From Eledone cirrhosa (Eukaryota), in NCBI GenBank assembly GCA_964016885.1, contig OZ024740.1:132308001-132372000 (forward strand): a stretch of DNA of 64,000 bases, given 5' to 3'. Below are positions 8,570 through 62,900 of the stretch, piece by piece (position 1 is the first letter of the stretch; every line of letters begins with the position of its first letter). A model generated the notes under the pieces. It saw nothing but the letters and a program-made list of their open reading frames with translations. It did not search any database and was not told where the DNA came from. The position numbers and the translations under genes are program-made.

Positions 8570-8656
8570 TTGTATTAGAATGATATGAAAATATTTTATA
8601 CACTAGATAAAAGATAAAGAAAGAGGTAGGAAGAGAAGGGGAAGAGGGAAGGGGAA

Positions 8657-10939
8657 ATGGAAAAACATCATTGTGGTATGTCCTTAAAAAACATACCCAT
8701 TCAGGGTAAAAAGGATTACATTCTTGGTATGATACAAAGGACCAACGAATTTATTCGGCGGATTAGATGGAAGGCCTTCCACTTCGATAGGAAAAGGATT
8801 ACACAAACTTCGGACACCAACAACGATAAGTTTGGTTTCAAATCCTACAAAAACCCACCCTCTAACCCTCTTTTGGATTCTTTCGAACAGGACTTAATGA
8901 AAATGATGACCGGAATCAAATTTACAAACGGAAGGAAAAACGAACTGCAACGAGATATTAAAACTCTACTCGACAACCTAAGGAATACCAAAGGAATTAT
9001 CATAAAGGCAGACAAAACATCGAATCTATACACCCTGGATGTAGAAACATATAACAATTTTATACGTAAGGAATTACATAGGAAGTACAAAAAAACAAAC
9101 GCAACTACACTAACCAACATTAATAACGCAGCATGTGTTATTGTTAGGAAACTGAAAATTGACGACCGAACGGTACCCCTATCCCCAGCTACACCGACTT
9201 TTAATCTGAAGGACCATAAGGATAACTTTGATACTAACCCTAAAATTAGATTAATATGTCCTTCAAAGTCCGATATTGGTAGAATTAGTAAGTACATATT
9301 AGATCGTATTATACCCCAAGGTAAGGCTATGGTAGATATTAAATTATGGGGTAATACTCATCAGGCAATAAGATGGTTCAATAGCATTAGGGACAAAAAT
9401 AAATCTTCTTTTATTCAATTCGATATAGATGAATACTATTCCTCTATTTCACCCGAAACCCTGCATAAGGCCCTCTCTTTCGCTAAGACTAACTCGGACC
9501 TCACAAACGATGAAATTAATATTATACTTGAAGCTAGACGCACAGTAGTGCACTTTGAAAATAGTTATTGGGTCCGCAGCGATAGACCCTCGGAATTCGA
9601 CATTACGATGGGTTCTAATGATTCGGCGGAGGTCACGGATTTGGTTGGGATCTATACAGCCCATAGACTCCAGAGCGAATTTACGGACCTCCACGGCGGA
9701 ATATACCGCGACGATACACTTCTATTAGTCAAGAATATGAACAAACAAAACCTAGAAAGGCGACGTAAAAACATTAGGAAACTTTGTTTAGAACTAGGGC
9801 TTAATATTACCTTCGAACACAATCTTAAGGTGGTCAACTTCTTAGATGTCACCTTCAACCTTAATAACGGTAATATAGAGCCATTTCACAAACTTAATGA
9901 AAATCTTAAGTACCTTAATGTAAAATCGAACCATCCTCATTCCATTATTAAATCTATCCCTAAAAATATATCCATAAGGATCTCCCGACTGTCGTCTAAG
10001 TTGCAGACCTTCAACGAGCATGCTGAATATTATAATAACGCACTTAGAAAAGCTGGTTACTGCGAGAAAATTGAATATCTAGACGATAACCACATAAGTA
10101 CTATGAATAAAACACATCTAAGTCGAACTAGTATTGCACCACACACACACATCAATAGGCATACTAATAGGTGAAAACCAGCAAATAGAGTCAGACGCAG
10201 AGAGTACATATGGTATAACCCCGTGTACAATTCTTCTATTAGCACTAAGATTATCTCACAATTCTATACACTAATAAATAAACACTTTACAACTTCACAT
10301 AAATACTATAAAATCTTTAACTCGCGCACCATTAGACTCTCATACTCCACTGCACCTAACATAGAACAACTAATTAGAAAACTCAACTCAGCAATACTGA
10401 ATAAGTACATCCCTAATGACTTAGCGCACCAGCATAGCAACATACAACGCACTAACACGCAACCACAACCCCACCAAACTATCCAGGATTCTACTGCAAA
10501 ACATAAAAATAATTGTAACTGCACCAAACCAGGTACGTTCCCACTGAATAACCAGTGCCTAGCACACAATATTGTCTACCGATGTACAATAAATTCCGGT
10601 ACCAACAAATGGTATTACGTCGGATTTACCGCAACCTCTTTCAAGGCCAGCTTATACCAACATCGATCTTCGATCAGGCACGAGAAAATGCGCTCCGTAA
10701 CAACCCTCGCCGATAAAGCCTGGCAGCTTCGGAGGAACAATCAAGCGTTCTCCCTTGATTGGCAAATTATTGCAGCTGCGCCTGCATATCAGCAAAATCA
10801 TCAATTCTGCAAGTTATGCAATTTAGAGATATACTGCATTTTAACGTCGGTAAACAAACTTTTGAACAGCAAAATTGAACGTTCTCTATACTGTAACCAT
10901 CGTTTGAAAACGACTTTTTCTTTTTTTAAATGCATATAA
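8657..10939 (+). pseudogene. PLE RT-GIY-YIG polyprotein interrupted by one in-frame TGA (10172-10174)
   Basis: ORFs 8657-10174 and 10223-10939 share a frame. Motifs: SLKNIPI, IKADKT, FDIDEYY, MGSNDSAE, YRDD, VNFLDVT, SNHP, IWYNP, CNC, NIVYRC/YYVG, CKLC. The endonuclease FKxR arginine reads FKAS and CPL reads FPL. Confidence 0.9.
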
Positions 10940-11348
10940 TGTTACCTTTTTACACCACCGTTGCAAATTTCTGTCTTATATGTTTATACACAGGATATGG
11001 CTTTCTATAATAATAGTACTAAACACTGTTTTTCTGGACCCCTTTAGAAATAACCTGCTACTATAATAGCCCTAATAACTTGTCTGTGACACTGTACCAC
11101 TTTGACCCCTTTAACTAAATTTTGTCCGAACAACACCACTAGAAGTATCTACTTCCCCGCCAACCTTAGCACGCTCCATTAAGCTAACTGCTGCCAAAAC
11201 ATTCTCTCCTCACTGTCTCTACCAGTCTGACAGTCTTAAATCCTAAGACTCCCTCCACCTTACTCACTTCCCTCTTCCCCTTCTCTTCCTACCTCCTTCT
11301 TTATCTTTTATCTAGTGTATAAAATATTTTCATATCATTCTAATACAA

Positions 11349-11465
11349 AGGTCTGAAGACATGGTGTGTGTGCTTACAGTGTACCTTCGGTTTATGATAA
11401 TATTTGTATATTATTCAAATAGCGAGGTATAGGTAACCCATACACTATAGAAACAATTGTTACCT
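11349..11465 (+). ncRNA. Hammerhead ribozyme type I with ~90-nt stem II
   Basis: AGGU-CUGAAGA (11353)-C-AUGGUGUGUG...CAUACACUAU-A-GAAAC (11450)-AAUU-GUU-ACCU. Stem I has 4 bp, the base of stem II 10 bp, and stem III is the palindrome AACAAUUGUU. Confidence 0.8.
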
Positions 11466-11578
11466 AACCAATTCTAAATACCCGCATTTCCATTTCGTAA
11501 ACTTCTCCATATATATTTATATATATATATTAAGAGAGTAAAACAAAGAATCCTTTAAAACATCAAAAGTTTTTATTA

Positions 11579-11616
11579 GCCGACAATGTTTCGTCCTATT
11601 AAGGACTCATCAGGGC
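11579..11616 (-). ncRNA. Minimal hammerhead ribozyme (inverted copy of 16961-16998)
   Basis: Exact reverse complement of the motif at 16961. Confidence 0.9.
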
Positions 11617-14600
11617 AATCAAAACAACAAGAGGTAATTTCGGCAGATACAAGCCAGAAACTCTGAAGAATATGGAGTTTACATACACTAATGTCTTACA
11701 AAGATATACTATAATAAAAATGAAGATAAAAATAATAAAATTATAATAACTAAGGATGTAGATAACATTAAGAACCATATTACAAATATAGTCCAAAGTC
11801 ACCAACTTAAATCTAAACAAATTTGGTTATATAGAGCAGGAATTATATATAACACAGTATAATACATTATAATAATAATATATCTATACTAACACTGAAA
11901 TTCCAAATCAAAAATCAAAAGGTACAATATATACATGTATATATGTGCGCACACACACACACACACACACACATATTACAATACACATATCTATTTTCTA
12001 TTACACAGAAATTAAGCCCTATTGGAAGTTTGAACATCAAAAATATCAAAAATAAGCATGGTAATAGTGAAAATAATGCTAACACATCCACCCAATATAC
12101 ATGAGGCAATAATTACAAGAAACACTTATAATAAATAATAAACAACAAAATTATATAATACAATACAATATAATAAAGTAGAATATATATAATATAATCT
12201 CCGGTTAATTTACAGAAACAATATAGATGTCACAGTGAAATACAATGATAAATTGTTAACATTATATTAACAATTACCGTAAGCAATATGTACAACATGA
12301 TTCATACTGGGTTACATAATAAATGGGGAAATATCCATCATATAATATAATACAATAATACTCAAAAAAACTATATTGGTACAGGGAACAATTATGATGT
12401 TACAGAAAAAATATGTTGTTACAGAAAAAATATAGACATCTAACATGATATGTAAAGTCTAAATACCATAATGTTACATATTACAATATTAAAATATTAA
12501 AATATTAAAAAATATAAAGTTTAACTATCTTAATATTATATATAATAAACGGTAAGTAATAAGGATCTATATCATAATGTAATATATTTTAAAAATTGGC
12601 ATATAATATATAAATAAATACTTATAATTTCAAGGTTAGTAGACAGACATGTGTTGATGAGTGAACGAAGCCAGACAGTGAGTGGTAAATAAAACAGATA
12701 AATACAATCAACCGGAAATTACAAAACAAAGCAAATGTGTACACACTTAGGCCTCGCGTGCATTAAGAAATTTGGTAAACACCAAGGAAAACGATCATTT
12801 TAAATGACTTCAAACCCTATCTGATAAATTAATATTAAAAATATCAAACCCGTCCGATAAGGTAGTATAAAATTAGCTATAGTCATTAAAGTATATAAAC
12901 TTTAATGTATCGTTACAAATGTTTACAAAAAGGAATAAAATTACACTATCATACACGCAACGATATCTAAAAAACTGACTTAAGTAGAGTTAAGGTAGGC
13001 TAATGGGGGCAGAATTGGCAAAATATATGGAGGGTGCGAAGTGGCATAAAATATATTCGATATACTATAATAAATAATAGAACAGAGCATAAAAGAGGGG
13101 GGGGGGTTAATATAATCATATTCAATCTAGAGGGGTTGACAATAAGTTTATGCGTGCATGGGGGGGGGGGAGGGGGGGATCGATAGATAAATCAGAATAG
13201 ACTTAGACATAAAAATATAAATAGAATTAAAAATAAAAATAAAAATAATGTTAAAATTAAAAATTAAAGTTAATGATAATAAAAGAATATATAAAGATAA
13301 TAACGTGTGTAATCTTATTTATACTAACAAGGTGTAATAGTGAAGACATAGATATGGTACAGTGGCCAAATGATTATGAGAGCTAGAATGAAGAGTCATC
13401 AAAAACCAATGGTAACAATAGTGTTGGCAAACAAAAGAACCCAAACAAAAAACTAAGTAATGGAATATATCTGCTAATGGGTACGATTTGTACTACTAGA
13501 ACATTTGGGTTTATAATAAAAGTAAGAATTAGAAATTGCATGGGGGCAAGAAGAGAATATCTCAGACTTTCTATTCAGTAAGGGTACTGATAGAGCGGTT
13601 AACTTTTTAGATGTGACCTTGGACTTGGCCACTAATAGTTTCAAACCCTTCCATAAGCCTAATGAAATTCTTTCTTATGTTAGCCCCAATTCTAACCACC
13701 CTAAGTCTATGATAAACTCTATAATTAAGGTCGTTTCTAATAGGATTTCCACACTATCTAAAGACATAGGAACTTTTAATGAACATGCGGAGTACTACAA
13801 TAACGCCCTAGCAAATTCAGGTCACTCTAGTAAAATAAATTATAATAATAGTAACTTTAGAAAGTCTCCGATTACTCTTAATAATAATAACATTATATCA
13901 CATAACATGGCTATGAATGTGAGTAGCAAACTTAGTAACCGTAGAACTTATATAGGAGTATCTGAACCCACCCATAAGTTATCCCACCGGACTCGTAATA
14001 ACAAATATAATACCTCTAAGAGACAAGTCGAGCCCCCTGTGCGCTCACGAATTGGTGTTGGTTTGGCTGGATCTTGTTCTAGTAGTGTTGCTCCTACTGA
14101 TCCTATCATTGGCCTTAATCCTCTTGTAGGGATTCTGGACAACAGTGGATCTACTAGAGGTAGAAACTATAATAGGCATAATGTAATTATGGCTGATTCT
14201 ATGAATGCGGCTTCAAATATTCCCGATAGTAACCCTAGTCTCGACGGTGGGACTTTTGATAGAGGTAGGGTCGATAAGAATAAAAATAAAAATAGAAGGC
14301 GATTGAATACTTATTTCAACCCGCCATATAACCAGGATGTATCAACTAATATCCCTAGGTCTTTCTTCACTATCCTGGAGAAAAACTTCCCCCTTCTCAC
14401 AAATACCATGGTATTTTTAATAAAAATGTTATTAAACTATCATTCTCTACCACCCCTAATATTAGTTCTCATTTAGCTAGCACTAATAATAGGAAGATTA
14501 GGGATGGATTCTCCTCTCTGCAGACTAATAGTCTAAATGCATCGGACAATGCTTTACCACCAGAACAGTCCTAATCTAATAGAGGTCCTAAGTGCAATAC

Positions 14601-16590
14601 ATCACCACTCGAGCCAACCAATAACACCCGGAAGTGCAATTGTAGAGTGAGTGCTAACTGCCCTCTAAACGGTAACTGCCTTTCTAAGAACATTGTCTAT
14701 GCTTGTGAGGTTATAACTAATTCCTCTAAAGGAACATATATAGGATCTACTTCAAACACTTTTAAGACTAGGTTTAACTCTCATATCTCTAACTTCAAAC
14801 ATATTAGGTTTAAGAATTCTACCTCTCTAGCGCATTATATCTGGGATCTTAAGGGAGCTTGTATACCATATAGCCTTAACTGGAGTTTAGTAGCACGATC
14901 TAACCACCTTTCTGCACATAGTAAGTTTTGTAATCTCTGTATACTTGAGACACACTCTATTATTTTCTCTAGCGTACCCTTGCTGAATAGAAAGTCTGAG
15001 ATATTCTCTTCTTGCCCCCATGCAATTTCTAATTCTTACTTTTATTATAAACCCAAATGTTCTAGTAGTACAAATCGTACCCATTAGCAGATATATTCCA
15101 TTACTTAGTTTTTTGTTTGGGTTCTTTTGTTTGCCAACACTATTGTTACCATTGGTTTTTGATGACTCTTCGTTCTAGCTCTCATAATCATTTGGCCACT
15201 GTACCATATCTATGTCTTCACTATTACACCTTGTTAGTATAAATAAGATTACACACGTTATTATCTTTATATATTCTTTTATTATCATTAACTTTAATTT
15301 TTAATTTTAACATTATTTTTATTTTTATTTTTAATTCTATTTATACTTATATTTCTAAGTCTATTCTGATTTATCTATCGAACCCCCCTCCCCCCCCCCC
15401 CCATGCACGCATAAACTTATTGTCAACCCCTCTAGATTGAATATGATTATATTAACCCCCCCTTTTTTATGCTCTGTTCTATTATTTATTATAGTATATC
15501 GAATATATTTTATGCCACTTCGCACCCTCCATATATTTTGCCAATTCTGTCCCCATTAGCCTACCTTAACTCTACTTAAGTCAGTTTTTTAGATATCGTT
15601 GCGTGTATGATAGTGTAATTTTATTCCTTTTTGTAAACATTTGTAACGATACATTGAAGTTTATATACTTTAATGACTATAGCTAATTTTATACTACCTT
15701 ATCGGACGGGTTTGATATTTTTAATATTAATTTATCAGATAGGGTTTGAAGTCATTTAAAATGATCGTTTTCCTTGGTGTTTACCAAATATCTTAATGCA
15801 CGCGAGGCCTAAGTGTGTACACATTAGCTTCGTTTTGTAATTTCCGGTTGATTGTATTTATCTGTTTTATTTACCACTCACTGTCTGGCTTCGTTCACTC
15901 ATCAACACATGTCTGTCTACTAACCTTGAAATTATAAGTATTTATTTATATATTATATGCCAATTTTTAAAATATATTACATTATGATATAGATCCTTAT
16001 TACTTACCGTTTATTATATATAATATTAAGATAGTTAAACTTTATATTTTTTAATATTTTAATACTTTAATATTTTAATATTGTAATATGTAACATTATG
16101 GTATTTAGACTTTACATATCATGTTAGATGTCTAAATTTTTTCTGTAACAACATATTTTTTCTGTAACATCATAATTGTTCCCTGTACCAATATAGTTTT
16201 TTTGAATATTATTGTATTATATTATATGATGGATATTTCCCCATTTATTATGTAACCCAGTATGAATCATGTTGTACATATTGCTTACGGTAATTGTTAA
16301 TATAATGTTAACAATTTATCATTGTATTTCACTGTGACATCTATATTGTTTCTGTAAATTAACCGGAGATTATATTATATATATTCTACTTTATTATATT
16401 GTATTGTATTATATAATTTTGTTGTTTATTATTTATTATAAGTGTTTCTTGTAATTATTGCCTCATGTATATTGGGTGGATGTGTTAGCATTATTTTCAC
16501 TATTACCATGCTTATTTTTGATATTTTTGATGTTCAAACTTCCAATAGGGCTTAATTTCTGTGTAATAGAAAATAGATATGTGTATTGTA

Positions 16591-16630
<40 letters not shown>

Positions 16631-16960
16631 ACATATATACATGTATATATTGTACCTTTTGATTTTTGATTTGGAATTTCAGTGTTGGTATAGATATATT
16701 ATTATTATAATGTATTATACTGTGTTATATATAATTCCTGCTCTATATAACCAAATTTGTTTAGATTTAAGTTGGTGACTTTGGACTATATTTGTAATAT
16801 GGTTCTTAATGTTATCTACATCCTTAGTTATTATAATTTTATTATTTTTATCTTCATTTTTATTATAGTATATCTTTGTAAGACATTAGTGTATGTAAAC
16901 TCCATATTCTTCAGAGTTTCTGGCTTGTATCTGCCGAAATTACCTCTTGTTGTTTTGATT

Positions 16961-16998
16961 GCCCTGATGAGTCCTTAATAGGACGAAACATTGTCGGC
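16961..16998 (+). ncRNA. Minimal type I hammerhead ribozyme, canonical core
   Basis: GCC-CUGAUGA-GUCC-UUAAUA-GGAC-GAAAC-AUU-GUC-GGC, followed by AATAAA. Confidence 0.92.
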
Positions 16999-17629
16999 TA
17001 ATAAAAACTTTTGATGTTTTAAAGGATTCTTTGTTTTACTCTCTTAATTTTTCGGCTCTGTTTAACTGCATTGAGCTATACCTTTTACTGTCATTTCTAT
17101 AATACGAAGAGGGTGTTTGACTCAAACACGCTCCAGTATTCTAATCCTTATATATATATATATATATATATATGTGATTCCTCTCCCCCCACCCCTCTAT
17201 CCACACACGCACATCCCCCCCCCCCTCCTCCCCCCCACACACAAACCTCTTCCTGAACATGCAACCCCGTTCTTCCCCCAACCCTTACTTTCACATACAC
17301 ACACACACACACACACGCCCACCTACACACACACACCACCTTCAGCCCTCCCCGCTCGAACACCCGATCTCCCTCTCCCCACCCCACCCGCCACCACCCC
17401 TACACACCACACACCCTTCCACCACCTGTTTTACCCCCTTTAATTTCAGTTTATTTTGAGCATGACTTTATATTTAAATTTATCTCATTCCTTGTATTTT
17501 GATCATGCTTTATTTTTATTTTTATCTTTATTTTTTATGTTTTCATTCGCACCGTTTCCTTTCGCTATATGTCTCTCCACCACTCCCCTACACACCATTT
17601 GAACTCTGTTCCCACACACTTCTCACCTG

Positions 17630-20939: not shown

Positions 20940-23900
20940 TAGGTGAATTATGCTGCCCTCTTACCAACACTTTCCCTTCCAATCACATACACCAGCCACC
21001 CACCCCTGATGCCGCTCGGTGCCCCAGTCCCCAGCCCCACGCCCCATCCCCCACCCCTCCAAATCGACACCTGCAGCACTTGCGGCACTACTAACAAACG
21101 GAAGAGTGGCCGGAACTGTTTGGGGTGCGGCTGCTTCCACCACCTCACCTGCGTTGGCTTGAATCGTCGAGCTTCCAATGCCCTCGCAGTGTGGAGGTGT
21201 AGGAGCTGCCTCTTCCCCACGTCTTCCATGCTACGGCCTTCTGGCACACCACCAGATGGGACAGCGAACTTGCCTGACGCCTGGTCAATATCGTTCGGCT
21301 CAGGCGGCTCCGGAAGATCTCTTTCAGGATCCCGAGAGCGGCACGGGTGCCGCTAGACGATGCCCTCGCTTCCTTGAAAGAGAGCGCCCTGGACTGCAAT
21401 CGAGCCAGTGACTGGGAGCGGATGTTCTATTTCGCCCCACTCGCCCTCGTCCTCCCCAGCTCTGGCGCTGACCGGAGAGGGCGGTCACCAGCAGCCTTCG
21501 TCAAGGCCAATGTCTCGTCATTTGGGCAAGCGTCCATTCCAAGCGTGCCCAGGGACGCCACATACCCCACCCTCAGGTACCCCTTATTCCCCACCACCGA
21601 GGCCAGCGCCAAGCGTTTGCGTGACCAAGTAAACGGAAAGCTTATCATGGGCTATGTCTCGGCCGCAGTCAGAGTTGTTGCCTCAGAGGACACTGTCCTC
21701 CAACCCACCGAGGAGATCCTGGCTGCTCTGCGGCTCAAACACCCTGAGCCACCCACTGATCTCAGACCCATACCCTCACCTGAACCCCACCTGCTCCTTG
21801 TGGCTACTGATGCAGATATCGGTCTGCCATCAGGTCCTTCCCAGGTAGCAGCTGCGGAGGTGTTGATGGTCTCCGACCAGGCCACCTCAAGGAGTTGACA
21901 TCCCCCTCTCCGCTGAGGCCGGGCGCCGCCTTCTGAGTGCAATTGTGGCGTTCACCAATAGACTCATTCATGGTGCCCTCGACCTTTACGCCCGAGGCCT
22001 CTTTTTTTCGGCCAGCCTCACGGCTCTCAGGAAGACAGAGGGTGGCATACGCCCCATTGCTTTGGGCAATGTCTTCCGGAGGTTGGCTACCAAGATGATC
22101 TGAAATTCCGTCACACATGAACTGGGTGAGGAGTTTAGTCCGTGCAACTAGGTGTCTGCGTGTCCGGTGGCTGTGAGGAACCCTCTCATGCAATCAGGCA
22201 GTTCTTCAGCAGCACCCATCGGTACCGGCATCCAGGGACTCCAGGCAACTCATTGTCAAGCTTGACATGAGGAATGACTTTAACTCTTTACGCCGGGATC
22301 ATCTGCTCGAGGCCTGCCTCAACCGAGTCCCCTCAGCCTACCCGCTGGCCTACCTGTCATATGGAGCCCCGAGCAAGTTCCTAACTGCTGATACGGTCAT
22401 ACCCTCGGCTAGTGGGGCCCAACAGGGCGGCCCTTTGGGACCCCTCCTGTTCGCCCTTGGTATTGACCACATCGCCCGGAGTATCACGGCCCCTCTCAAC
22501 GTTTGGTATCTGGATGATGCTACGTTGGGCGGGCACGTACGGACGATCTGCCAAGACCTTCAATCGGTGATACCTGCCCTGGCGGGAATCGGCCTCCAGG
22601 TCTACTCAGCCAAGTCGGAGGTGGTGAACGTCAGCCTCGATGCTGTGAGTTTTGCAGCCTCCGTCTTGGACGTCCGGTCCATTCACCGCCAGTTTCAGGT
22701 GGCCCCCAAAGAGGATGTCCTCATCCTCGAGTCACCGATCCACCCGCCGTCCATCCGCTCCACCATCAGGTCCAGGCTTCGACAGCTCCAGATTCTCACG
22801 AGCCGACTGGGCTTGATTCACAGCCACCCAGCTCTCTTTCTGCTGAGGAACTGCTTCGCCATGCCGAGGCTCCTCTATACACTCCGCAGCGCTCCATGCT
22901 ACACCCAGACATCTCTCCTCGATGACCTCGATACTTGCATCCGAGCAGCAGCCGAGGGGATATGCAACGTCAAGTTTGACGATATAGGGTGGCAACAGGC
23001 CACTTTACCGGTCAGGTATGGCGGCCTAAGCCTCCGGTCTCCGATCTCACTAGCTTTGCCGGCTTATCTTTCGTCGGTAAACTCGTGTCGCGTCCTCGTC
23101 AGCAGGGTTCTTCAAAACACAACAGAACCTTCTGTGTTCAGAGAACGTGAGGCCGCCTGTGAGACGTAGGACCGGCTGGGTCTCATAGACGTCCCTCCTC
23201 CTTCTCCCCATGTTGACATCAAGTCGCCCAACGCACTTGGGATGCCATCCAGTGCAGCCTGGCCTCAGACAGGCTCACGCGCCCGCTCGACCAGCACCGC
23301 CTTGCTTGCTTTCGTGCGGCCTCCAAACCCCACAGTGGTGCCTGGCTCCATGCTCTGCCCTACTTCTCCACTGGCACACAGCTAGACAACCATAGCCTGC
23401 GAACCGGCGTTTCACTGAGGCTCGGCCTCCGGATCTGCCAGCCACACCAATGTCGCTGCTGTTCCACCGTGGACTCTTTCGGCCTCCACCCGCTTTCCTG
23501 TCGCCACAGTGCCGGCCGCATTCCACGCCATACTGCCCTCAACGAGGTCATTAAGCATGGCTTGGACGCTGCAGGCTTCCCTTCTCAGCTCGAGCCGGTG
23601 GGGTTGGATCGAGGGGACGGCAAAAGGCCAGATGCCATGACCATCTTCCCGTTTCGCGGTGGCAAAACCCTCGTCTGGGATGCCACTTGCACCGACACAT
23701 TCTGAAGCCGCAACCTGGTGCAGTCTGCGACTGACCCCGGTTCTGCTGCGCGTCGGGCTGAGGGGGCCAAACTCCTCAAATACCGGTCGCTCTCCGACAG
23801 GTTTGCGGTCGTTCCCCTGGCAGTGGAAACTTCTGGTGTTCTCGGCCCCAGGGCTACCTCCTTACTCACCACCATAGGCGCTGAGCTGGCCAGCCGTAGG

Positions 23901-29883: not shown

Positions 29884-30070
29884 ATAATAGTTGTTTCTAC
29901 TTTTGGCACAAAGCTAGCAATAACCCAGTGCATTACTGGTACTTTATTTTATCGACCCCGTAAGGATGAAAGGCAAAGTTAACCTCGGCCGGATTTGAAC
30001 ACAGAATGACAGGGGCCGTAACTCTATGCGTCAAAGTATGGCGTCCGACCCTCTCCCGATACTGCCAATC
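29884..30070 (-). mobile_element. SINE family A (right arm)
   Basis: Mirror of 28354-28540. Confidence 0.88.
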
Positions 30071-30321
30071 TAATAATAAATAATAATAACAACAACGTTT
30101 ATTTATATTAGGAGTCGTAGCTCGATTGTTGAGCTCAGCCGTCTGGCCACGATTCTGTTTAATATTGTCACACTCTACTATCAGAATTATCGATTACTTT
30201 ATTGAATAACGGTTTCCATCTCACTCTCGCTCCCCCTCTTCATCACTCTCTCTCTTTATATAAATCAATATATAGAGAGAAGTATGTGTTTAATCATAGG
30301 GGATAGAAAGCCACCATAGTT

Positions 30322-30372
<51 letters not shown>

Positions 30373-30411
30373 CAAAAATCCATACATACATACATATATA
30401 TATATATATAT

Positions 30412-30519
<108 letters not shown>

Positions 30520-31253
30520 GTACGTGTGTGACTGTGTGTGTTTGCTTGTGAATATTTCAAACACACATGAATCTAAACAGCACAGGGCTCCTTCTCTTAA
30601 ACACAATTTATAATCATGTACATTTTCTGCTTATCGCTTATACAATAAACTATAACAAGTATTAAAGATAACAATTGGCTTACTCTTACCATGTAACACA
30701 CTGCATTAAGATTGTTTTCAAGAATGTGCCCAATGTTAATCAACTAGTAATAGAATGTTCGTTTCATTCAGTTAGACGAATGTTTGTATATCGGTATGAG
30801 AAAATATATGTATGTTTTATTTTAGCTGTCTTGACTTGTAGCTGAATCAAAAGAAAAGTATATCTAAAATACCACCATTATTTTAACTTGAGTGATGTTG
30901 AGAAATAATGAAAACATTTGCTATAAGACGAGACATTTGTGCTCGAATTTGTTACGGATTAATGTCTCAGATAGTTTAATGGAATATTTGAAAGGCAAAC
31001 ACTTTACGGCAACCATTTCAAAAGACATTCAAAGTACTAATAATATAATAATAAAACAAAATAAGACGAACTCAGTTTTAAAAGAAATATAAACAGAAAT
31101 ATGCAAATATTTCCAGTGAGCTCTCTTCTGTAATACGTGGGAAATCAAATTAGAAAAATTGATGGATATGTGTGTATGAGCTTGATGTGTGCAAGTAAAC
31201 AAAATAAACCGATATTTATATATATATATATATATGAGTGCGTGTGTGTATGT

Positions 31254-31339
<86 letters not shown>

Positions 31340-31359
31340 CATATATATATATATATACA

Positions 31360-31425
<66 letters not shown>

Positions 31426-31673
31426 ATAGAGAGAGAGAGAGAAAGAGAGAGAATGCGCAGTTTTATGCTTTATTAATATGCATTTATAGGGACAGGTAGA
31501 AGAATATGTTGATATACAATAATGTATACATGAAATCGTAAAGCTACTCCGTATGAATACGGACACATAAAAATAAGCATTCATACAAACATATTCACAT
31601 ATATATGCACACATACATATTCACATATATATAAACATGTGTATATATATATATATGCATCTCTCTCTCTCTC

Positions 31674-31729
<56 letters not shown>

Positions 31730-32421
31730 TTTGTGTAAGTTCGTATGTACGTGTGTGTTTGTACGTGTATGTATACGCATGTATGTGTGTGGTCCTGTAT
31801 CTACTACTGGGACGTAATGACATCATTTCTATGGCATTTCGCACTTGGCAGAGACGAACTCACCCAGGTCTGAAAAAGTTGATTACATTTAAAATGAGAT
31901 ATAGAGAAATACTCAACTGTAGTACAGAAATGTCTTCTTTTTTATTGAGGAATGAAAGCCATAACAAACCTCGGTGGGATTTGAAATCAGAGCGCAGAAG
32001 AAAAAATATCGGTATAAAATATACAGGGAACCGTCTCTCCAAATACAAGAACAATTGACCAAATAAACTTGTAGATATTGTTTCCTTTTTTTATTTTTAT
32101 TTCCGAAAAAAAAATGTTTAAATAAAAGTTGACGATTGTGGTTCCACGTGAGATTAATCTGATTAACCACCATGAAAATCTGGTTTCCCACAGAAATATT
32201 CATACAGGTGCAATGTATTTGAAGTTAATATATATATATATATATATATAGAATAACAAGGTTTCGTTCAAGGTAACCTAGTTAAAGCTTGTGAGTGTTC
32301 TGTATTGTGGATAGTTTTGGTGTACGGCGATGTTTGATTCATAAAGAAGTTTCCTTAGTTAGGTGGCAAGTTTACGAGAATAACTATGCAGGTGATTCTT
32401 GGAGTAATAACAGTAAATGGT

Positions 32422-32672
32422 CGACTGTACAAAAAGTTTTTTTTTACAGTATTAACAATTGTTTCATTAATCAGGGGAGTCTAAACGCCGCTGATCGCCA
32501 GGAATTGCGTCACTCGACCTTAATTACAATGTGTGTCTCTCATCAAATCATCAGAGACAGACATTGTAATTAAGGTCGAGTGACGCAATTCCTGGCGATA
32601 AGCGGCGTTTAGACTCAACTGATTAACGAGACAATTGTTAACACAGTAAATAAACCATTTTTGTAGAGCCGA
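32422..32672. repeat. Short palindrome (~115-bp arms) with a degenerate HHR-like motif
   Basis: The arms are reverse complements. The minus strand at 32451-32506 reads CUGGCGA...GAAAC-AAUU-GUU. Confidence 0.7.
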
Positions 32673-32694
32673 GCATATTGTTCTTCTCTCTTTT

Positions 32695-32787
<93 letters not shown>

Positions 32788-32802
32788 GTATATATATATA
32801 TA

Positions 32803-32901
<99 letters not shown>

Positions 32902-33329
32902 ATATTTTCTTATTTTACGTCCTTTATATTATTGTTCTGCATTCTCCTGCATTGAACCACCTAGGTACTATGACATAACCTGTGTATTTGCTGGCATGGG
33001 CGTGCATCTGTGCGCTTATGTTAGTTGATATATTAAATTATCTATATTTATCTCCAAATCACTGATTTGTCGAGCAAACTTGTCAAAACCACTTCTAAAA
33101 AAATTTTTTTGGGGTGTTAGTAGGCGTCAGTCATCTTACCATCCCATTCCTTCTAACTAGCCTCTGTGTCACGTGATTGATTCTTTAGAATCGGCCATTT
33201 GACTTGAAGCAGTGAGAATTTCGGTACATAGAATCCAGTCCTCGCAAGCTGTTCGATCTACCGAATTATTATTATTTTTATATGAGCCGCCAGTGTCCGC
33301 GCATTGCCTGGAGACTTAACTGAGAATAG

Positions 33330-33411
33330 ACTCCCTGATGACGCAATGAATTTTCGACAGTTGGATTACGTAACTGTCTTTATCCCATTGCAGAAACTAA
33401 TTAGTTGGAGT
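33330..33411 (+). ncRNA. Hammerhead ribozyme type I, ~50-nt stem II
   Basis: ACUCC-CUGAUGA-C-GCAAUG...GACAGUU/AACUGUC...CAUUGC-A-GAAAC-UAAUUA-GUU-GGAGU. Confidence 0.88.
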
Positions 33412-33885
33412 GAAAATTTAAGTAAGAAAAAAATTTTTTTTAAATTTTTTAAAAAAAATATTTTCTTATTTTACGTCCTTTATATTATTGTTCTGCATTC
33501 TCCTGCATTGAACCACCTAGGTACTATGACATAACCTGTGTATTTGCTGGCATGGGCGTGCATCTGTGCGCTTATGTTAGTTGATATATTAAATTATCTA
33601 TATTTATCTCCAAATCACTGATTTGTCGAGCAAACTTGTCAAAACCACTTCTAAAAAAATTTTTTTGGGGTGTTAGTAGGCGTCAGTCATCTTACCATCC
33701 CATTCCTTCTAACTAGCCTCTGTGTCACGTGATTGATTCTTTAGAATCGGCCATTTGACTTGAAGCAGTGAGAATTTCGGTACATAGAATCCAGTCCTCG
33801 CAAGCTGTTCGATCTACCGAATTATTATTATTTTTATATGAGCCGCCAGTGTCCGCGCATTGCCTGGAGACTTAACTGAGAATAG

Positions 33886-33967
33886 ACTCCCTGATGACGC
33901 AATGAATTCTCGACAGTTGGATTACGTAACTGTCTTTATCCCATTGCAGAAACTAATTAGTTGGAGT
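33886..33967 (+). ncRNA. Hammerhead ribozyme type I, second tandem copy
   Basis: Identical to 33330 except one internal-loop base. Confidence 0.88.
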
Positions 33968-34150
33968 GAAAATTTAAGTAAGAAAAAAATTTTTTTTTAA
34001 TTTTTTTTAAAAAATATTTTCTTATTTTACGTCCTTTATATTATTGTTCTGCATTCTCCTGCATTGAACCACCTAGGTACTATGACATAACCTGTGTATT
34101 TGCTGGCATGGGCGTGCATCTGTGCGCTTATGTTAGTTGATATATTAAAT

Positions 34151-34187
<37 letters not shown>

Positions 34188-34375
34188 CTAACAAAAGTTT
34201 ACGGTAGTGCCCAATCCGTATGAAGAACTCAATGTAATCCGGATATCATGAAAAGAGAAGATGCATTCAAAAACTACTTTCGGTGAAAAATAAATGGAAA
34301 ACAGAGTCAACATAAATTATTTAAAAAATAATGAATAAACAAAGTAAACAGTTCCTTATATTAAAAAAAAATTCA

Positions 34376-34511
34376 TTATTTTGCGATCGTTTCTAGGATA
34401 TATATGTGTTAGAGTTGGTATGCATATTCTACAGATCTATGTACAATATTCATACAAACTATCAGAGGGAATATACATACCTTCACATATATATGCTGTC
34501 TTCAGAAATAA
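34376..34511 (-). ncRNA. Hammerhead ribozyme, long stem II, cleavage triplet mutated (GCA)
   Basis: Mirror of 37281-37412 but with GCA in place of GUA. Confidence 0.65.
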
Positions 34512-35318
34512 CGATACTTGTTTATTGATAAGAACAAAGATTCAATACAATAGGTCTGTTTGGGAACAGGTTTTGAATTGACCAATCAGGAGATAGTGAG
34601 GGTCAAGATAGTGATATAGAATTAGGAGAACCTTAAATTATGGGTAGAGGAAGGTAGATTTCAGTTTTGGATGGAAAAGAGTATTATGAATGAAGGATTA
34701 CTTTAGGGAAGAAGAAGGTCATATGTTGACCTCAGAAATAATTTGATTTGTTCATTGAATAAAACCTACAAAGATCCAATAATAATGGATTACTTTAGGC
34801 AAGAAGTAGGTCATATGTTGACCTCAGAAATAATTTTATTTGTTCATTGAATAAAACCAACAAAGATCAAATATACTTTGTCTGTTTGGTAAGAGGTTTA
34901 GAATTAACCAATAGAAAGTTAATAATTGGTCAAATGGTAAAATAGTAGTAATTGAAACTTATTTTAGGGGTGAAACTAGGTCAGGTGGTCAGTAGAAGGT
35001 ATACAAGCAGTTGCTGTTATAAAATAGTAATGCCAATACAAATATCTAAGGTGATCAGAGTTTTTAGATAAGGATGTTAGTGAAAAAAATACATCTATGA
35101 AAAGGATATAAAATTAATTTAATTGATGGGTATATTTATATTGATAAAATTATACTAATACATATAGATATGATAAATAAGAGTTAGATGCAGTTGAAAA
35201 GTGCTGTTAAGGATGAGGGGAGATTAAAAGAATATAAAAATGATATATATATATATATATATACATATATATACCTACATATATATACATACATACACAC
35301 ACACATACACACACACAT

Positions 35319-35403
<85 letters not shown>

Positions 35404-35495
35404 CATACACATACACACACAAATATATACCCATATACATATATATATATATACGCATATACACATGTACATATACATACACACACACACACACA

Positions 35496-35549
<54 letters not shown>

Positions 35550-36199
35550 TATACACATATATATATATATATATATATACATATATATATTTTTTTTTAC
35601 ACTCACATACATACACACATACATACATACACACTTATATACACACACATCCACACTTACATATACATATAATTATTGGGGGGTGGGATTAAATTTATTA
35701 GTGGGGAATAGTAAATATATATACTTTTCAAGGAACAGAGTCATAACCTGAAGTTAAACAATATATATGTTTACTTAATGGTATCAGTTTTAGGAGATGA
35801 TATTTGTAAGAAGGAAAGCCAAATTATGTAGTTCATCATTAGTAGAATATTAATTATAGGTTAACTAAAATAAAAATAGTTTATATATTAATTTCTAAGG
35901 TGTATATTAATTAGGCTTTAATATTAATTTGGCTCTCCTTCTTACAAATATCATCTCCTAAAACTGATACCATTAAGTAAACATATATAAGCTTTAACTT
36001 CAGGTTATGACTCTATGTTCCTTGAAACCTATATATATTTACTATTTCCCACTAATAAATTTAATCCCCCTCCCCTAATAATTATATGTATATGTAAGTG
36101 TGGATGTGTGTGTATATAAGTGTGTATGTATGTATGTGTGTATGTATGTGAATGTAAAAAAAATATATATTTGTATATATATATATATATATGTGTATA

Positions 36200-36249
<50 letters not shown>

Positions 36250-37100
36250 TGTGTGTGTGTGTGTGTGTATGTATATGTACATGTGTATATGCGTATATTA
36301 TATATATATATATATATGTATATGGGTATATATTTGTGTGTGTATGTGTATGTATGTGTATATATATATATATATATATGTGTGTGTATGTGTGTGTGTA
36401 TGTATGTATATATATGTAGGTATATATATGTATATATATATATATATATATCATTTTTATATTCTTTTAATCTCCATTCATCCTTAACAGCACTTTTCAA
36501 CTGCATCTAACTCTTATTTATCATATCTATATGTATTAGTATAACTTTATCAATATAAATATACCCATCAATTAAATTAATTTTATATCCTTTTCATAGA
36601 TGTATTTTTTTCACTAACGTCCTTATCTTAAAACTCTGGTCACCTTAGATATTTGTATTGGCATTACTATTTTATAACAGCAACTGCTTGTATACATTCT
36701 ACTGACCACCTGACCTAGTTTCACCCCTAAAATAAGTTCCAATTACTACTATTTTACCATTTGGCCAATTATTAACTTTCTATTGGTTAATTCTAAACCT
36801 CTTACCAAACAGACAAAATATATTTGATCTTTGTTGGTTTTATTCAATGAACAAATAAAATTATTTCTGAGGTCAACATATGACCTTCTTCTTCCCTAAA
36901 GTAATCCTTCATTCATAATACTCTTTTCCATCCAAAACTGAAATCTACCTTCCTCTACCCATAATTTAAGGTTCTCCTAATTCTATATCACTATCTTGAC
37001 CCTCACTATCTCCTGATTGGTCAATTCAAAACCTGTTCCCAAACAGACCTATTGTATTGAATCTTTGTTCTTATCAATAAACAAGTATCATTATTTCTGA

Positions 37101-39550: not shown

Positions 39551-39606
39551 ACTGCTATATATATTTCGATGATAGCCATTGAATGGCTATGACCTCATCA
39601 GGCAGT
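39551..39606 (-). ncRNA. Hammerhead ribozyme type I
   Basis: ACUGC-CUGAUGA-GGUCAUAGCCAU-UCA-AUGGCUAUCAUC-GAAA-UAUAU-AUA-GCAGU. Confidence 0.85.
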
Positions 39607-42682: not shown

Positions 42683-42744
42683 TTTCATTATACATATTTC
42701 AAGGGCCACCAGAGCAAACTATGGTGCGCTTTCATCAGATAAAA
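42683..42744 (-). ncRNA. Hammerhead ribozyme (mirror of 42882-42943)
   Basis: Same core and stems. Confidence 0.78.
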
Positions 42745-55480: not shown

Positions 55481-55613
55481 CTATATATATATATATATTA
55501 ATAAAAGGAATTCCAACTTTGTCTGATTTACCCGTTTTATTTACAATCCTTTAAAATTTATAATGGTATTAGAATGAAATAGTATGGTAGAATATTAAAT
55601 GTTAAGTGTTAAT

Positions 55614-55652
55614 TGAACAAGTACTTTCATGCTTTCGCAATCTTCAGGTTTG
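55614..55652 (-). ncRNA. Minimal hammerhead ribozyme downstream of the PLE ORF
   Basis: AAC-CUGAAGA-U-UGC-GAAA-GCA-U-GAAA-GUAC-UU-GUU; stem III is the palindrome AAGUACUU. Confidence 0.75.
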
Positions 55653-57080
55653 TATTCTGTGGTGACAGTCATGTTTGCGATTTTCAACTGTAATGAGATG
55701 GGTAAATTTTGTGCAATATATACAGTGAAAAGTCGCTACAGAATGCTAAATCTTGGATCTCTGATTTGCTGTCGGTCTACCCGTGCACGTTCCGATAGTG
55801 CATTTCCAGTTTGACCGACATATAGTTCGTCACAATTCGGGCATGTATTGCAGTAAATTAGATTTCTGCTTTTGCAGTTCATATTTGCATTTGGGAATAT
55901 TTTTCCAGTTTTTTGCTTTAATATATTGAATGGATTGACATGTGCCACATCGATTATCATTGCATTTAGATACAGTGAATGATTGGTCTTTGTTGTTAAG
56001 GTCAAACTTTGCTTCTGTTAGTAATTGCTTCAAATTTTCGGCTGTCTTTTACTAAGAGTCAAAGATCGATCTGTGATTAAGCCTTTTAATTCATTACTTT
56101 GAGCAATCGGTAGGTTTGCTTTGGCAGTGTTGAAGATATTCTGGTGACATGGGTTGTGTGTCATTATAAATGGTATGACCAGTTCTTGGTTTCCTCTTTA
56201 TTAGGTTGTCCTAAGTTGTTGTATAGGTATTTTTATAGCCCACTGTATGCCATTTTCTATAAGTAGAGATGGGTATTTTTGTTTGAGCAAAAATTCTGCT
56301 AGTTCAGTTAGGCGTTTGTAATGGTGGTGTCGTTTTTGATTATCATTATATCTAGGAATGGTAATTTGGTCCTACTCATTCCTTTTGTGAATTGGAGAGA
56401 TGGGTGTAGGTTATTCAGGAGGATATTGAACTCATCCACAGTAACTAGAGATTCTGTCCAGATGATGAAACAGTCGTCAAGGTATCTATTCCAAGATTTT
56501 TCAATGCACTTTCTAAAATCAGTACTATATTTTTCCTCTATTTCTTGGTAGAGTTGTTGTTCTAAGTATCCCATTACAGAGTTCGCGTAAACGGGAGCAA
56601 ACGTCGTTCCCATCGCTGTGCTCTAATTTGGATGTAATTCTTTCCATTGAAGAAGAAAATGTAGGTTTCCAGAATAAGTTTAACTGAGTCTAATATAAAT
56701 GGCGCTGTGAATCTAATGGGAATCACTTCTCTATGTTTCTCCACCCAGTATTTAACCGCCTTTATTCCTAAAGCATGTGTAATGTTGGTGTAAATGCTTA
56801 CCACATCAAAACTAAGTAGAAGTGAATCCGTTTCCGTGGTTTTGGGAGGATGGGACAGGAAGTCGATATCACCCCGGATGAATCTGGGTATGTGAATACA
56901 TAGTGGTTTCAAAATAATGTCAACAAAATTACTTAGACGGTGGGTGGGGCATGTTGGACCAGCTATAATAGGTCTACGTTTTAAGTCTTTTGGGTGTAGT
57001 AATTTAATGTACTCACTTTTTGTTCTTTTACTCATCTCATTACAGTTGAACATTGCAAACTTGACTGTCAGCACAGAATC

Positions 57081-57119
57081 TGAACCTGAAGATTGCGAAA
57101 GCATGAAAGCACTTGTTCA
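57081..57119 (+). ncRNA. Minimal hammerhead ribozyme (inverted arm copy)
   Basis: UGAAC-CUGAAGA-U-UGC-GAAA-GCA-U-GAAAG-CA-CUU-GUUCA. Confidence 0.75.
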
Positions 57120-57320
57120 ATTAACACTTAACATTTAATATTCTACCATACTATTTCATTCTAATACCATTATACATTTTAAAGGATTGTAAATAAAACG
57201 AGTAAATCAGACAAAGTTGGAATTCCTTTTATTAATCTAATCTTCTATACACAATCATACACACTCGTGTATATTTATCTATCTATATATATATATATAT
57301 ATATGTAATATATATATGTA

Positions 57321-59919: not shown

Positions 59920-62900
59920 TTATGTATGCATGTCTTCATGTGTAGATATGGATGTTATTGTATGTGTGGATGTGGATGTTTTGAGTTCTATGTGTGCATG
60001 TGTATATGCTTTGTATCTGTACATGTGTATATGCACTTATTAGATACAAAATGTTTGGAATGTTTTACATATGTTTACTGTTCCATTAAAGGATTGTACA
60101 TGTAATTTCCTAACTAGTTGTGTTCTTTCTGTTCCTGTGAAGCCTAGCTTCTCAATATTTGTATTGAGGCAGTTACTAACATACCCCAGTGCCCCAATAA
60201 TCACAAGCATATATCTGAAGGTGTAATCAGGGTGGAGTATCTGTAGATTTCTCATCAGTTCTGCAGAAATATTCTCCTTTTCGCTAATCTTTGATATTAT
60301 ATTGGCATCTGCTGGGCAGCAAATTTCTACTACTATGCATGCTTTCTTCGCCCTGTCCCATATCATAATATCTGGTCTGTTATGTCTGCATTTTATTGGG
60401 GTTTTTACTAAAACATTCCACCAGTACTCTTTCATATTATATACATGGATGTCTTCCACATTGCTGTAGCTTTTAATGTGTTTATTATCGGGGCTATTTT
60501 TTTACGAACTGCATTGTACAGTGTTTTGGCCACTACATCATGCCTCATAGGTAGATAGTACCGTGATGAAATCTTTGGACAGCTGCTGATGACATGTTTG
60601 ATATCCTCGATGTTAGTTCTGCAGAGTCTGCACTGGTTATCACATCTAGGTGTTTTGCCTGCATCCCTATCTCTTTTGTGAATCAGGTATTTCGTGTTAA
60701 TCTCCTGTTCTTGGATTGAAAAAGTGTATCCTTCAAAGTGGGAGCAAATATAGCGGTTGTTGGTCCAAGACTACTTTCCATCTCTATATTACTCTCACCC
60801 TGGAGCTTCCTGGCAACTTATCGATGCATGATTTTTTTGAGTATAAGCATGCAGTTTTTCATCCATGGATTTACTGCGACACTGCTGAGCGACTTCCCTG
60901 GGTGTGAGTCTTTGATTATCACACAGGGAATATCTCTCGAGGAGTTCCTCCCCAACTCTCATGATCTTATATATTTCATGCAGATAGACTTGCTCAAGAA
61001 ACGGGCTCCTACTCTTCCAGGTTCGTAGATGTTGTCGGAGAGATATGATACGACATTCAAATGTTGTCTGGACTGATGTTAGGCCTCTGTCTCGCTGATT
61101 ACGTTTCAAGTAAAGGCGGTTATGTTACTGTTGATGTGGAAGTTTCCGGTGTTGTTTAGTATTTTTCGAGTTCCAACATCAACTACTCAGATTTCGTCTA
61201 TCGTCCAATTGAGTATTCCAGACGTTGGTGTTAGAACAGGCACAGCAAACACATTGTCACCCACTGTTTTGTTTTGCGCAGAGAGTTCCGATGACCAGAT
61301 CTTTCTTAATCGGGTGTAGTATTCCCTGGTTACGTGTTCTTTATTACAGATACCATTATAGGATATGTTCTCATCTATCCACAGGTATCTGTAGCAGTCC
61401 TCATCAGATATCGGTGAAACAGTTAGGCCATTGATCACAATGTTGCTAGATTGGGTTGGTGTTTGTCCACGCTTTATAATCATACTCCATTCCTCTATCC
61501 TTTGAGAACGTTGTAACAAGGTGAAGATTTTGTTTCACACCATCTATGTTCTTGGCATAGAGTTTCAGATCGTCCACAAAGAAATAATGGGTTAGGTTCG
61601 TATTTCTGTCCTCTTGTGAGCCAATGATGTATCCCTCACATTTCTTGAGCAGAAAGGACAAGGGGTTTAATGACAACAAGAATAATATCACAGAGAGAAA
61701 GTCCCCCTGAAATATACCCCTGCGATATTTTATTTTATCAGTGAAAATAGAGTCCTCCCTTTCTGTCTTTAACCTTAGGATAGTAGCCCAAGAAGACAGC
61801 CTCTCTATGGCTCTGACAATAATGTCTGGGACTTTAGCAAGTTGGAGGGCCTCTATCATCCAAGAGTGGAGAATAGAATTGAAAGCTTTCCTGTAGTCCA
61901 GGCAGACTGTAACCATATTCCACTTAAGTTGTCGCACCTCCGACATCGAAGTTTTGTTGATTAGGAGTTGTTCAGCACATCCCCAAACCCCTTTCTTTCT
62001 GGCTGCTTGTTCATCTGTGATGATGTTATTATTTTCACAGTGATCTTGGAGGAATAGGTTCAGGCAGGTTTTATACATCTTGTACATCAGGTTCTGGCAT
62101 GCAATGGCTCGGTAGTTTTTTGCCAAGTTGGTGTCTTTGTTCTTGGGGACCAGTAATGTTTGTGCTAATGTCAACCATTCTGGTATAAGTGTATCTCGCT
62201 TAAGAACTTGTTGGTAAAGGTCAGTAAGATACCTCCGATAGAATATCTGTTTTTTTGTACCAGTAACCGACAATCATGTCTCTTCCTGGTGTTTTCTTCT
62301 CTTGGAGTTTTCCTATCACAGTCTCAAGCGTACCCTCACGTATTTCGTATGTTTTTGCTGTAGTGTAGGAGCAATAGTTATTTCGGATTTCTCTTAGCCA
62401 CACTGCATCTTGGTTGAAATTCTTCTTTTCTCCCCATATTTTGCTCCAAAAGGAATCTACGTCTTTCTGTGATCGGGCCTCAGTGACACTTTGTTCTTCA
62501 TATCCCTATAGACTGATGTTTGGTTTTTGTCTGAATCTTTTATTAAGCACTTTTCTCTCATCTGCTTTCTTCAAGTATCGGCGTTTTTCGCTAACAGCTC
62601 TCAATTCTTGTTTGAGGGTGATCAGCTTAGATTGAAGAGTTCTGGTTCTACTGTTACCAAACATCATCTCTATTTTATTTTTCACTCTTTGTTGGTGAGG
62701 AGTGAGGTTTTTTTGCATGTAAGGGGCATTGTCACATATCCTATGGTTTTTTGTATGTCAGCAATCTTTTTTCTATTTTAGTTATATATGATGGTATTTT
62801 TGGTGGTGTTCTGTTCTTGTTAATATCTCTGCTATCACCAAGATAATGCTTCACTGTCGTTGCTAAGGCATATAAACAGGTGTTGATTTGCCAAAATGTT

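Follow-up and report, generated by a model that had tools for sequence, protein, structure and literature searches.

A young non-coding hammerhead repeat at (TA)n sites, with insertion ends that point to copying by a Hydra-type Penelope-like element

How did a non-coding repeat come to lie in little more than two copies between (TA)n tracts, and which enzyme copied it there? The window analyzed here is a stretch of 64,000 nucleotides, in which positions 32896/7 to 34159 are taken up by a 556-bp unit, present 2.27 times and flanked by (TA)n. In a self-comparison, 707 of 713 positions were identical at an offset of 556, and every other offset from 540 to 569 gave a value of about 0.3. Inside the element the units differ from each other at four places only (33353/33909 and three in an A/T tract). 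The sequence-only reading of this locus, which had described 2.27 near-identical non-coding 556-bp units in (TA)n, is thus borne out. We number the unit from the first base after the predicted ribozyme cut, so that unit position 1 is 33407. The parts of the insertion are as follows:

32896..34159, + strand: whole insertion, a single arm of 2.27 units, 5'-truncated at unit position 46, whose 3' end is site B (defined below)
33407..33962, + strand: full unit from cut site to cut site, the predicted 556-nt monomer
32697..32896, strand not assigned: (TA)n tract, the 5' flank and insertion target
34160..34185, strand not assigned: 3' flank, a short (TA)n followed by (GATA)n

The longest Met-started frame on the unit has 62 aa. 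The predicted fold of the full unit has a z of -4.1, with 0 of 100 shuffles equally stable. Just left of the (TA)n flank, window positions 32417-32676 form a MITE-like or foldback hairpin with 127-bp arms (87% complementary) and a 6-nt loop; other tandem repeats of the window lie at 1642-2253 (261 bp, 2.3 copies) and 34689-34872 (92 bp, 2 copies).

Each full unit contains one type I hammerhead motif with stem I ACUCC/GGAGU and a palindromic stem III, exactly as first described:

33330..33411, + strand: hammerhead 1, type I, predicted cut between 33406 and 33407
33886..33967, + strand: hammerhead 2, predicted cut between 33962 and 33963

Its parts follow in the order stem I, CUGAUGA, C, stem II (GCAAUG/CAUUGC, extended by an inner hairpin), A and GAAA, so that the CUGANGA and GAAA core is present with three stems, and stem III is the 12-nt palindrome AACUAAUUAGUU. 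Across 23 aligned relatives the stem pairs covary, stem II and the inner hairpin included (42 two-sided cells, a number reached by 0 of 500 shuffles, though not a probability, as the aligned sequences are related). The sequence-only reading had also placed a C.A pair at the base of stem II. The two bases are indeed present: all 23 aligned hammerheads have a C following CUGANGA and an A preceding GAAA, which intervene between the core and G10.1-C11.1. The proposed pairing does not hold up as well: the G-C pair that usually opens stem II is retained one step out in 22 of 23 rows, and taking C and A as additional bases that flank this G-C pair suits the alignment better than taking them as a pair at the stem base. 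Nor is such a core, called non-canonical in the sequence-only reading, unprecedented, since File S2 of PMC8557442 lists hammerheads of Hydra and other Penelope-like elements (PLEs) that have GUU sites and extra bases flanking stem II on either side. Of the 26 Hydra rows in that table, 15 have unpaired extra bases both before and after stem II and 10 have cleavage after a GUU-type U (counted from the table); the C/A form is listed only for the Chara element PLE-X1, the Hydra rows having U/U or U/C. An Rfam search of window positions 30000-37000 gave no hammerhead match at E<=1, only matches driven by microsatellites. Work by Lunse et al. from 2017 reportedly deals with PLE hammerhead variants and may hold further precedents. 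A GGAU/AUCC pseudoknot, considered as a loop contact, was ruled out, as unit positions 513-514 vary.

To place the unit in the genome, we counted exact matches to the 29-nt 3' half of the hammerhead and obtained 4,189 in 3.0 Gb, with none for the reversed control. Together with the covariation of the stems, this argues that the hammerhead is not a product of chance. The best 40 DNA matches in the genome are 99-100% identical to the window copy. The earlier picture of a young, dispersed tandem repeat fits, with thousands of copies. Contig C1 holds 59 insertions among the 100 matches listed, from which we extrapolate roughly 2,500 insertions genome-wide. A pattern that excludes the stem II of the window unit gave 6,351 further matches, mutually exclusive with the 4,189. 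These belong to sister families with units of 521-542 nt and the same 3' ends as the window family; they are homologous to it across the entire unit and only ~67-75% alike, with core and stems kept through compensatory changes. Public runs of three other organism codes yielded single contigs only, a thin record.

A local tandem duplication, a satellite or an assembly artefact would leave the unit present only here, which the genome-wide matches contradict. Thousands of dispersed copies with fixed ends also speak against this explanation, as does a public run, possibly from the source sample, that has 0.78 of the unit's words and 1,783 contigs on the region. The few long satellite-like arrays that occur at other places, with higher-order variants, speak for such an origin, yet we give it almost no credence for the window copy. 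Four of the loci sampled are long satellite-like arrays of the unit (L255-L258 in genome G000, at C3 88.37 Mb, C28 8.90 Mb, C2 312.65 Mb and C4 291.99 Mb), with 11-17 cut sites per 9.9 kb and higher-order variants, suggestive of a transition from retrozyme to satellite.

No PLE open reading frame is contiguous with the unit at any of 202 loci (119 + 83, some overlapping; flanks of 1.5-3 kb). The RT and GIY-YIG frame that lies between the pLTRs of an autonomous PLE is thus absent at these loci, which goes against the earlier concern about an attached frame, and the unit is therefore assigned to the animal non-LTR retrozymes. It has several of their features: a hammerhead in each tandem unit, no protein or attached frame, and dispersed multiple copies. 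We conclude that the window copy is a young member of this class, which is already known.

Its size of 556 nt had been remarked on as greater than that of familiar animal retrozymes, but it falls inside the 51-972 bp reported for retrozyme consensus sequences (Li, Clavereau and Pollet 2026, 10.64898/2026.07.22.740005). It does exceed the 170-400 nt that Cervera and de la Pena (2020, PMC7229834) give for the invertebrate circles of this class. Like the elements of both papers, the unit is non-coding, has one type I hammerhead, occurs in thousands of dispersed copies and belongs to a group for which mobilization by PLEs has been proposed; unlike those of PMC7229834, it combines its greater length with the extra C/A, a long stem II and GUU. 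Circles have been demonstrated for published animal retrozymes, whereas the window unit is known from DNA alone. Four RNA runs yielded a single 18-nt piece, which speaks neither for nor against expression. The portions of the two papers drawn on here contain no map of insertion ends, Hydra helper or DNA cut footprint.

We then asked where insertions of the family begin and end. The 3' ends of 93 of 102 sampled arms fall at one of two sites ~118 nt apart:

33481..33485, + strand: start site A, TATAT, unit positions 75-79; internal in this insertion, also present at 32925-32929 and 34037-34041, and the 3' end of 45 of 102 arms
34155..34159, + strand: start site B, TATAT, unit positions 193-197; the 3' end of the window copy and of 48 of 102 arms
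34042..34159, + strand: the 'tail' between sites A and B, ~118 nt

Internal copies of site B lie in the window insertion at 33043-33047 and 33599-33603, and BLAST extends the site to unit position 201. Both sites finish in TATAT, after which (AT)n follows. Where two arms meet head-to-head, one A arm is joined to one B arm in all 33 classifiable pairs (36 pairs in total; p = 1e-10); a second sample of 16 pairs gave 13 of 13 classifiable mixed pairs, bringing both samples to 46 of 46. The 5' ends of arms are variable. The median arm measures 496 nt, 38 of 93 arms are longer than one unit, and arms traverse whole units up to five or more times.

These ends change what can be drawn from the copy number. 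A search for circularly permuted copies had been proposed, and permuted ends are rejected: in two samples the 3' ends are fixed at A or B. The sequence-only reading had further seen in the non-integer unit count a sign of copying around a circle. As the 3' end is a fixed start site and the 5' end an ordinary truncation, the 2.27 units say nothing about a circle. Its proposal of PLE-type mobilization, on the other hand, is strengthened by the two fixed 3' ends with the tail between them and by the inverted, 5'-truncated partners, PLE-type traits that occur here together with a (TA)n target. L1-style abutting arms were rejected, since the start of the partner arm is not a place where 5' ends accumulate. 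Five insertions (L038, L056, L079, L085 and L088) have symmetric junctions, with both arms stopping near the same unit position, in at least one case at a palindrome (unit position 109).

Similar ends, tail, inversion and target would be found if the copies were ordinary pLTR fragments of an autonomous PLE, and the unit does resemble a Hydra leader and 3' UTR without the ORF (the non-coding part of the Hydra family described below is 735 nt long). This origin is very improbable given the 202 loci without a contiguous PLE frame, the arms that span whole units up to five or more times, and sister families that are homologous over the whole unit.

The layout described for PLEs in PMC8557442 combines incomplete tandem copies with a truncated partner in inverse orientation, and one end bears a tail of 30-40 bp. 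In vitro, the Poseidon PLE of the green anole uses two internal start sites, and both target strands are cut and extended (Frangieh et al. 2024, PMC11167929). The retrozyme is like Poseidon in that start-site spacing equals the tail, in its apparent two-strand extension and in its AT-rich target. Poseidon is autonomous with a tail of 30-40 bp, whereas the retrozyme is non-autonomous with one of ~118 nt; Poseidon starts without target homology, whereas both retrozyme sites end in TATAT; and in the Poseidon study no RNA reads were found to end at the cut (PMC11167929), where DNA copies of the retrozyme do end. Chlamys non-autonomous PLEs such as MRC1 are likewise non-coding, pLTR-forming, multicopy and head-to-tail, and ride on a PLE, but they belong to green algae and most are described as having no canonical hammerhead (PMC8557442).

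Sequence has also been added at the ends. Between the element and (AT)n, terminal B ends of 13 distinct insertions (15 of 74 terminal rows) have (CT)5-18, and the 71 internal site-B rows never have more than two CT; in one insertion (L034) a single CT stands inside and eleven stand at the end. Because the A-side flanks of insertions that bear (CT)n are (AT)n rather than (GA)n, the run is unlikely to have been part of the target. Stuttering at the start of reverse transcription would be the simplest reading, and slippage at LINE 3' repeats may offer a precedent.

Does the ribozyme cut in the cell? Junctions were defined as departures from the unit just upstream of an anchor, with matching bases counted by hand and with apparent point mutations and small indels left out of the cut-site count. 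At the predicted cut, junctions 0-2 nt and 3-7 nt upstream of the anchor stand at 44:11 (among the matches listed, 100 of 263). A control anchor within stem II that is likewise preceded by TT gave 17:19 (all 77), and one at the 3' base of stem II gave 10:31 (among the matches listed, 100 of 122). On these hand counts the excess at the cut site has a Fisher p of 0.0015 against the former and 9e-8 against the latter. After fetching, 42 of the 44 junctions were kept, one internal deletion and one duplicate being dropped. Scaled up, ~116 of 5,954 anchors, or ~2%, end at the cut.

The cut after GUU at 33406 and 33962 that had been predicted from the sequence is thus supported indirectly, by an excess of 5' ends within 2 nt, and it is likely that the hammerhead cuts in vivo at this GUU. 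Match lengths of 0, 1 and 2 occur at 14:17:13 among the cut-site junctions, and most junctions have a T or two at positions that are U in the uncut RNA as well; they may reflect a reverse transcriptase running off the cut 5' end, often adding a base or two. Cutting is likely to be slow, with ~2% of passes ending at the cut and the rest running through. GUU cleavage sites are slower than GUC sites. Alternatively, the excess could arise because transcription starts or the reverse transcriptase pauses there, with the non-standard hammerhead inactive. This would suit the extra C and A at the core, the GUU site, match lengths that are not mostly 0, and a modeled circular fold in which stems I and III pair with a probability of ~0.1, at a cost of 4.4 kcal/mol. 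We nevertheless consider an inactive hammerhead unlikely: the excess falls within 2 nt of the position that structure alone had indicated, no such excess is seen at the base of stem II (10:31), a stronger stem at which pausing would be expected, and families ~67-75% alike have preserved core and stems through compensatory changes. Insertions in which both arms end at the cut (8 of 39) were not usable as evidence, symmetric junctions elsewhere being present in 5 of 33 pairs.

Since ~98% of passes cross the cut site, the template must have been mostly uncut or re-joined. We put at about even odds that a re-joined monomer, that is, a circle, is the usual template of multi-unit arms, beside a minority of linear, partly cut RNAs. 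The other account keeps the element and the helper and dispenses with circles: the template would in every case be a linear read-through transcript of an array, in most cases intact and now and then cleaved at a hammerhead farther upstream, and arrays would regrow by DNA-level duplication or template jumps. We regard it as a serious contender whose chances fall somewhat short of even.

The composition of insertions speaks against an always-linear template. In 97 insertions, a variant that recurs in several insertions is carried by every copy of a given insertion in 684 of 764 cases, diagnostic variants are present in both arms in 434 of 451, and 18 variants private within the sample have reached fixation in as many as 6 copies, several of them across both arms. 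Units are thus homogeneous per insertion, with little sign of inherited unit-to-unit differences; the 'private' variants may mark small unsampled subfamilies. In one case (L232:1634-2855), one arm has an identical 4-nt deletion beside the cut in both of its passes and the other arm is intact, which also counts against linear templates. The two arms of L232 differ elsewhere too, pointing to two templates or later homogenization. One arm of another insertion (L040:2805-3685) is a chimera with two hammerheads from different subfamilies, the product of a template switch or of recombination within the unit, and it weighs against the circle as template. Arrays of 17 or more units do exist and could give linear templates. 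The one young long array checked has a fixed variant absent from the other 96 insertions, however, and three other long arrays differ from the window unit at 36-74 places.

Arms that stop at the cut favor the linear account. Of 42 such arms, 22 had already crossed at least one intact site (unbiased passes 73:26:5:1; p = 0.0025, for two sets that differ in subfamily mix), which follows readily if the template was a partly cut multimer; in a circle that is already base-paired to cDNA, the hammerhead would not be expected to fold. A full-turn stall on a circle, just after site B, left no excess (23 departures beside ~2,455 anchors). Among published systems, the anole PLE uses mainly unprocessed RNA in vitro and its ribozyme mutants still insert (in the experiments of PMC11167929 considered here), and 8 of 9 Xenopus dimers stayed uncleaved in vitro (10.64898/2026.07.22.740005). 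A defined second-turn 5' end at unit positions 412-432 was rejected: the first sample gave 7 of 18 against 2 of 62 in a range chosen post hoc, and a pre-set independent test gave 1 of 16.

As for the enzyme that copies the retrozyme, the window itself contains an element of the likely helper clade:

8630..11520, + strand: broken Hydra-clade PLE, separate from the insertion, with an ORF at 8630-10939
33069..33077, + strand, second copy 33625-33633: GTYGAGYAA motif ~22 nt after site B, a candidate helper-binding element

The ORF bears the RWK, DKT and CxCX5C marks of the Hydra clade, and the hammerhead of this element (~11353-11467) has a long stem II and a C/A core. Hydra-like elements are a very large family, with 58,227 first-look candidates genome-wide; one Hydra family, that of the PLE at 8630, was examined in full, pulled by protein from the best 150 of these. 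It includes intact 760-aa ORFs within 3,017-bp tandems, with 212 nt from cut to ATG and a non-coding part of 735 nt. At 30 loci its hammerhead has a C/A core, long stem II, palindromic stem III and GUU, as in the unit, and its copies end ~45 and ~155 nt after the cut, ~110 nt apart, with (CT)n at several ends.

At the level of BLAST the unit does not match this family. The best local alignment of the two leaders sets site B on site B, a weak likeness (16 of 1,000 shuffles as high), and for the site-B region alone 0 of 1,000 shuffles were as high, against 150 of 1,000 in a control. GTYGAGYAA follows site B in 87 of 91 internal rows and follows both Hydra start sites (leader positions 88 and 181). 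No other element with the site-A motif appeared among the matches listed (100 of 118), nor any with stem III and a longer stem II (45 of 55 listed). As 202 loci, the motif searches and the Hydra family yielded no autonomous element with the unit's sequence, the helper is assigned by likeness only. The retrozyme is like Hydra-clade PLEs in its (TA)n target, extra bases around stem II and GUU-type cut (Craig et al. 2021, PMC8557442), and like the Hydra family of its own genome in the C/A core, the tail (~110 nt there), the (CT)n ends and the leader motif. It differs in having no ORF and in its C/A, where the Hydra rows of the published table have U/U or U/C (PMC8557442). From these sequence features, a Hydra-clade PLE is the likely helper of the retrozyme.

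The window contains further elements of this kind. A second Hydra-like PLE (11530-17150) has ORF pieces at 13526-15087 with a GIY-YIG match, two ends ~102 nt apart, and identical minimal hammerheads head-to-head at 11613 (-) and 16964 (+). A non-Hydra PLE (55498-57285) has an RT fragment at 56574-57116 (-) and ends ~49 nt apart; its inverted hammerheads at 55647 (-) and 57086 (+) have U/U extra bases, so that in this window the extra-base core is not restricted to Hydra elements. More hammerhead or hammerhead-like motifs lie beside (TA)n at 42738 (-) and 42888 (+), head-to-head, and at 39601 (-) and 41943 (+), probably in other PLE-type insertions. Other RT fragments at 698-1447 (-), 22177-23169 (+) and 61446-62273 (-) comprise one that is PLE-like by eye without a Pfam match and two RVT_1.

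We thus consider it quite probable that the locus is a young, non-coding hammerhead tandem repeat, present at thousands of (TA)n sites, and that a Hydra-clade PLE supplied the reverse transcriptase and endonuclease that copied it. In the mechanism we propose, the helper would cut both strands of (TA)n, and each target strand would prime reverse transcription inside the RNA, one at A and one at B, by pairing through TATAT. The enzyme would sometimes stutter at the start, adding (CT)n. Two cDNAs would then be joined 5' to 5', or a single one would be joined to the target, as may have happened in the window copy. The joint reading that the hammerhead cuts in vivo at GUU, that a Hydra PLE copies one template from two starts, and that a telomerase-related reverse transcriptase builds new (CT)n(AT)n microsatellites, has in our judgment an evenly balanced chance of being right as a whole.

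In literature listings outside subscription journals and preprint supplements, we came upon no report of this element, of a cut footprint, of a Hydra-retrozyme pair or of repeat or (CT)n addition by a PLE. The function of PLE ribozymes is called unclear in PMC8557442, and limited evidence on the retrozyme life cycle is reported in 10.64898/2026.07.22.740005. The retrozyme class itself is already known, and the interest of this family rests on testable footprints, not on the circle argument. Its insertion ends likely record cutting by the ribozyme in the cell and copying by a Hydra-type Penelope. From a young family of this sort come precise expectations about which base is cut, where the two starts lie, which motif may be bound by the helper and which PLE, with intact 760-aa ORFs, may be that helper. 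If repeat addition at the start is real, it would tie PLE priming to telomerase-like slippage and to the birth of microsatellites. If the whole account is true, these insertions would be a fossil record of the entire retrozyme cycle, with the helper named and ribozyme activity shown from DNA alone.
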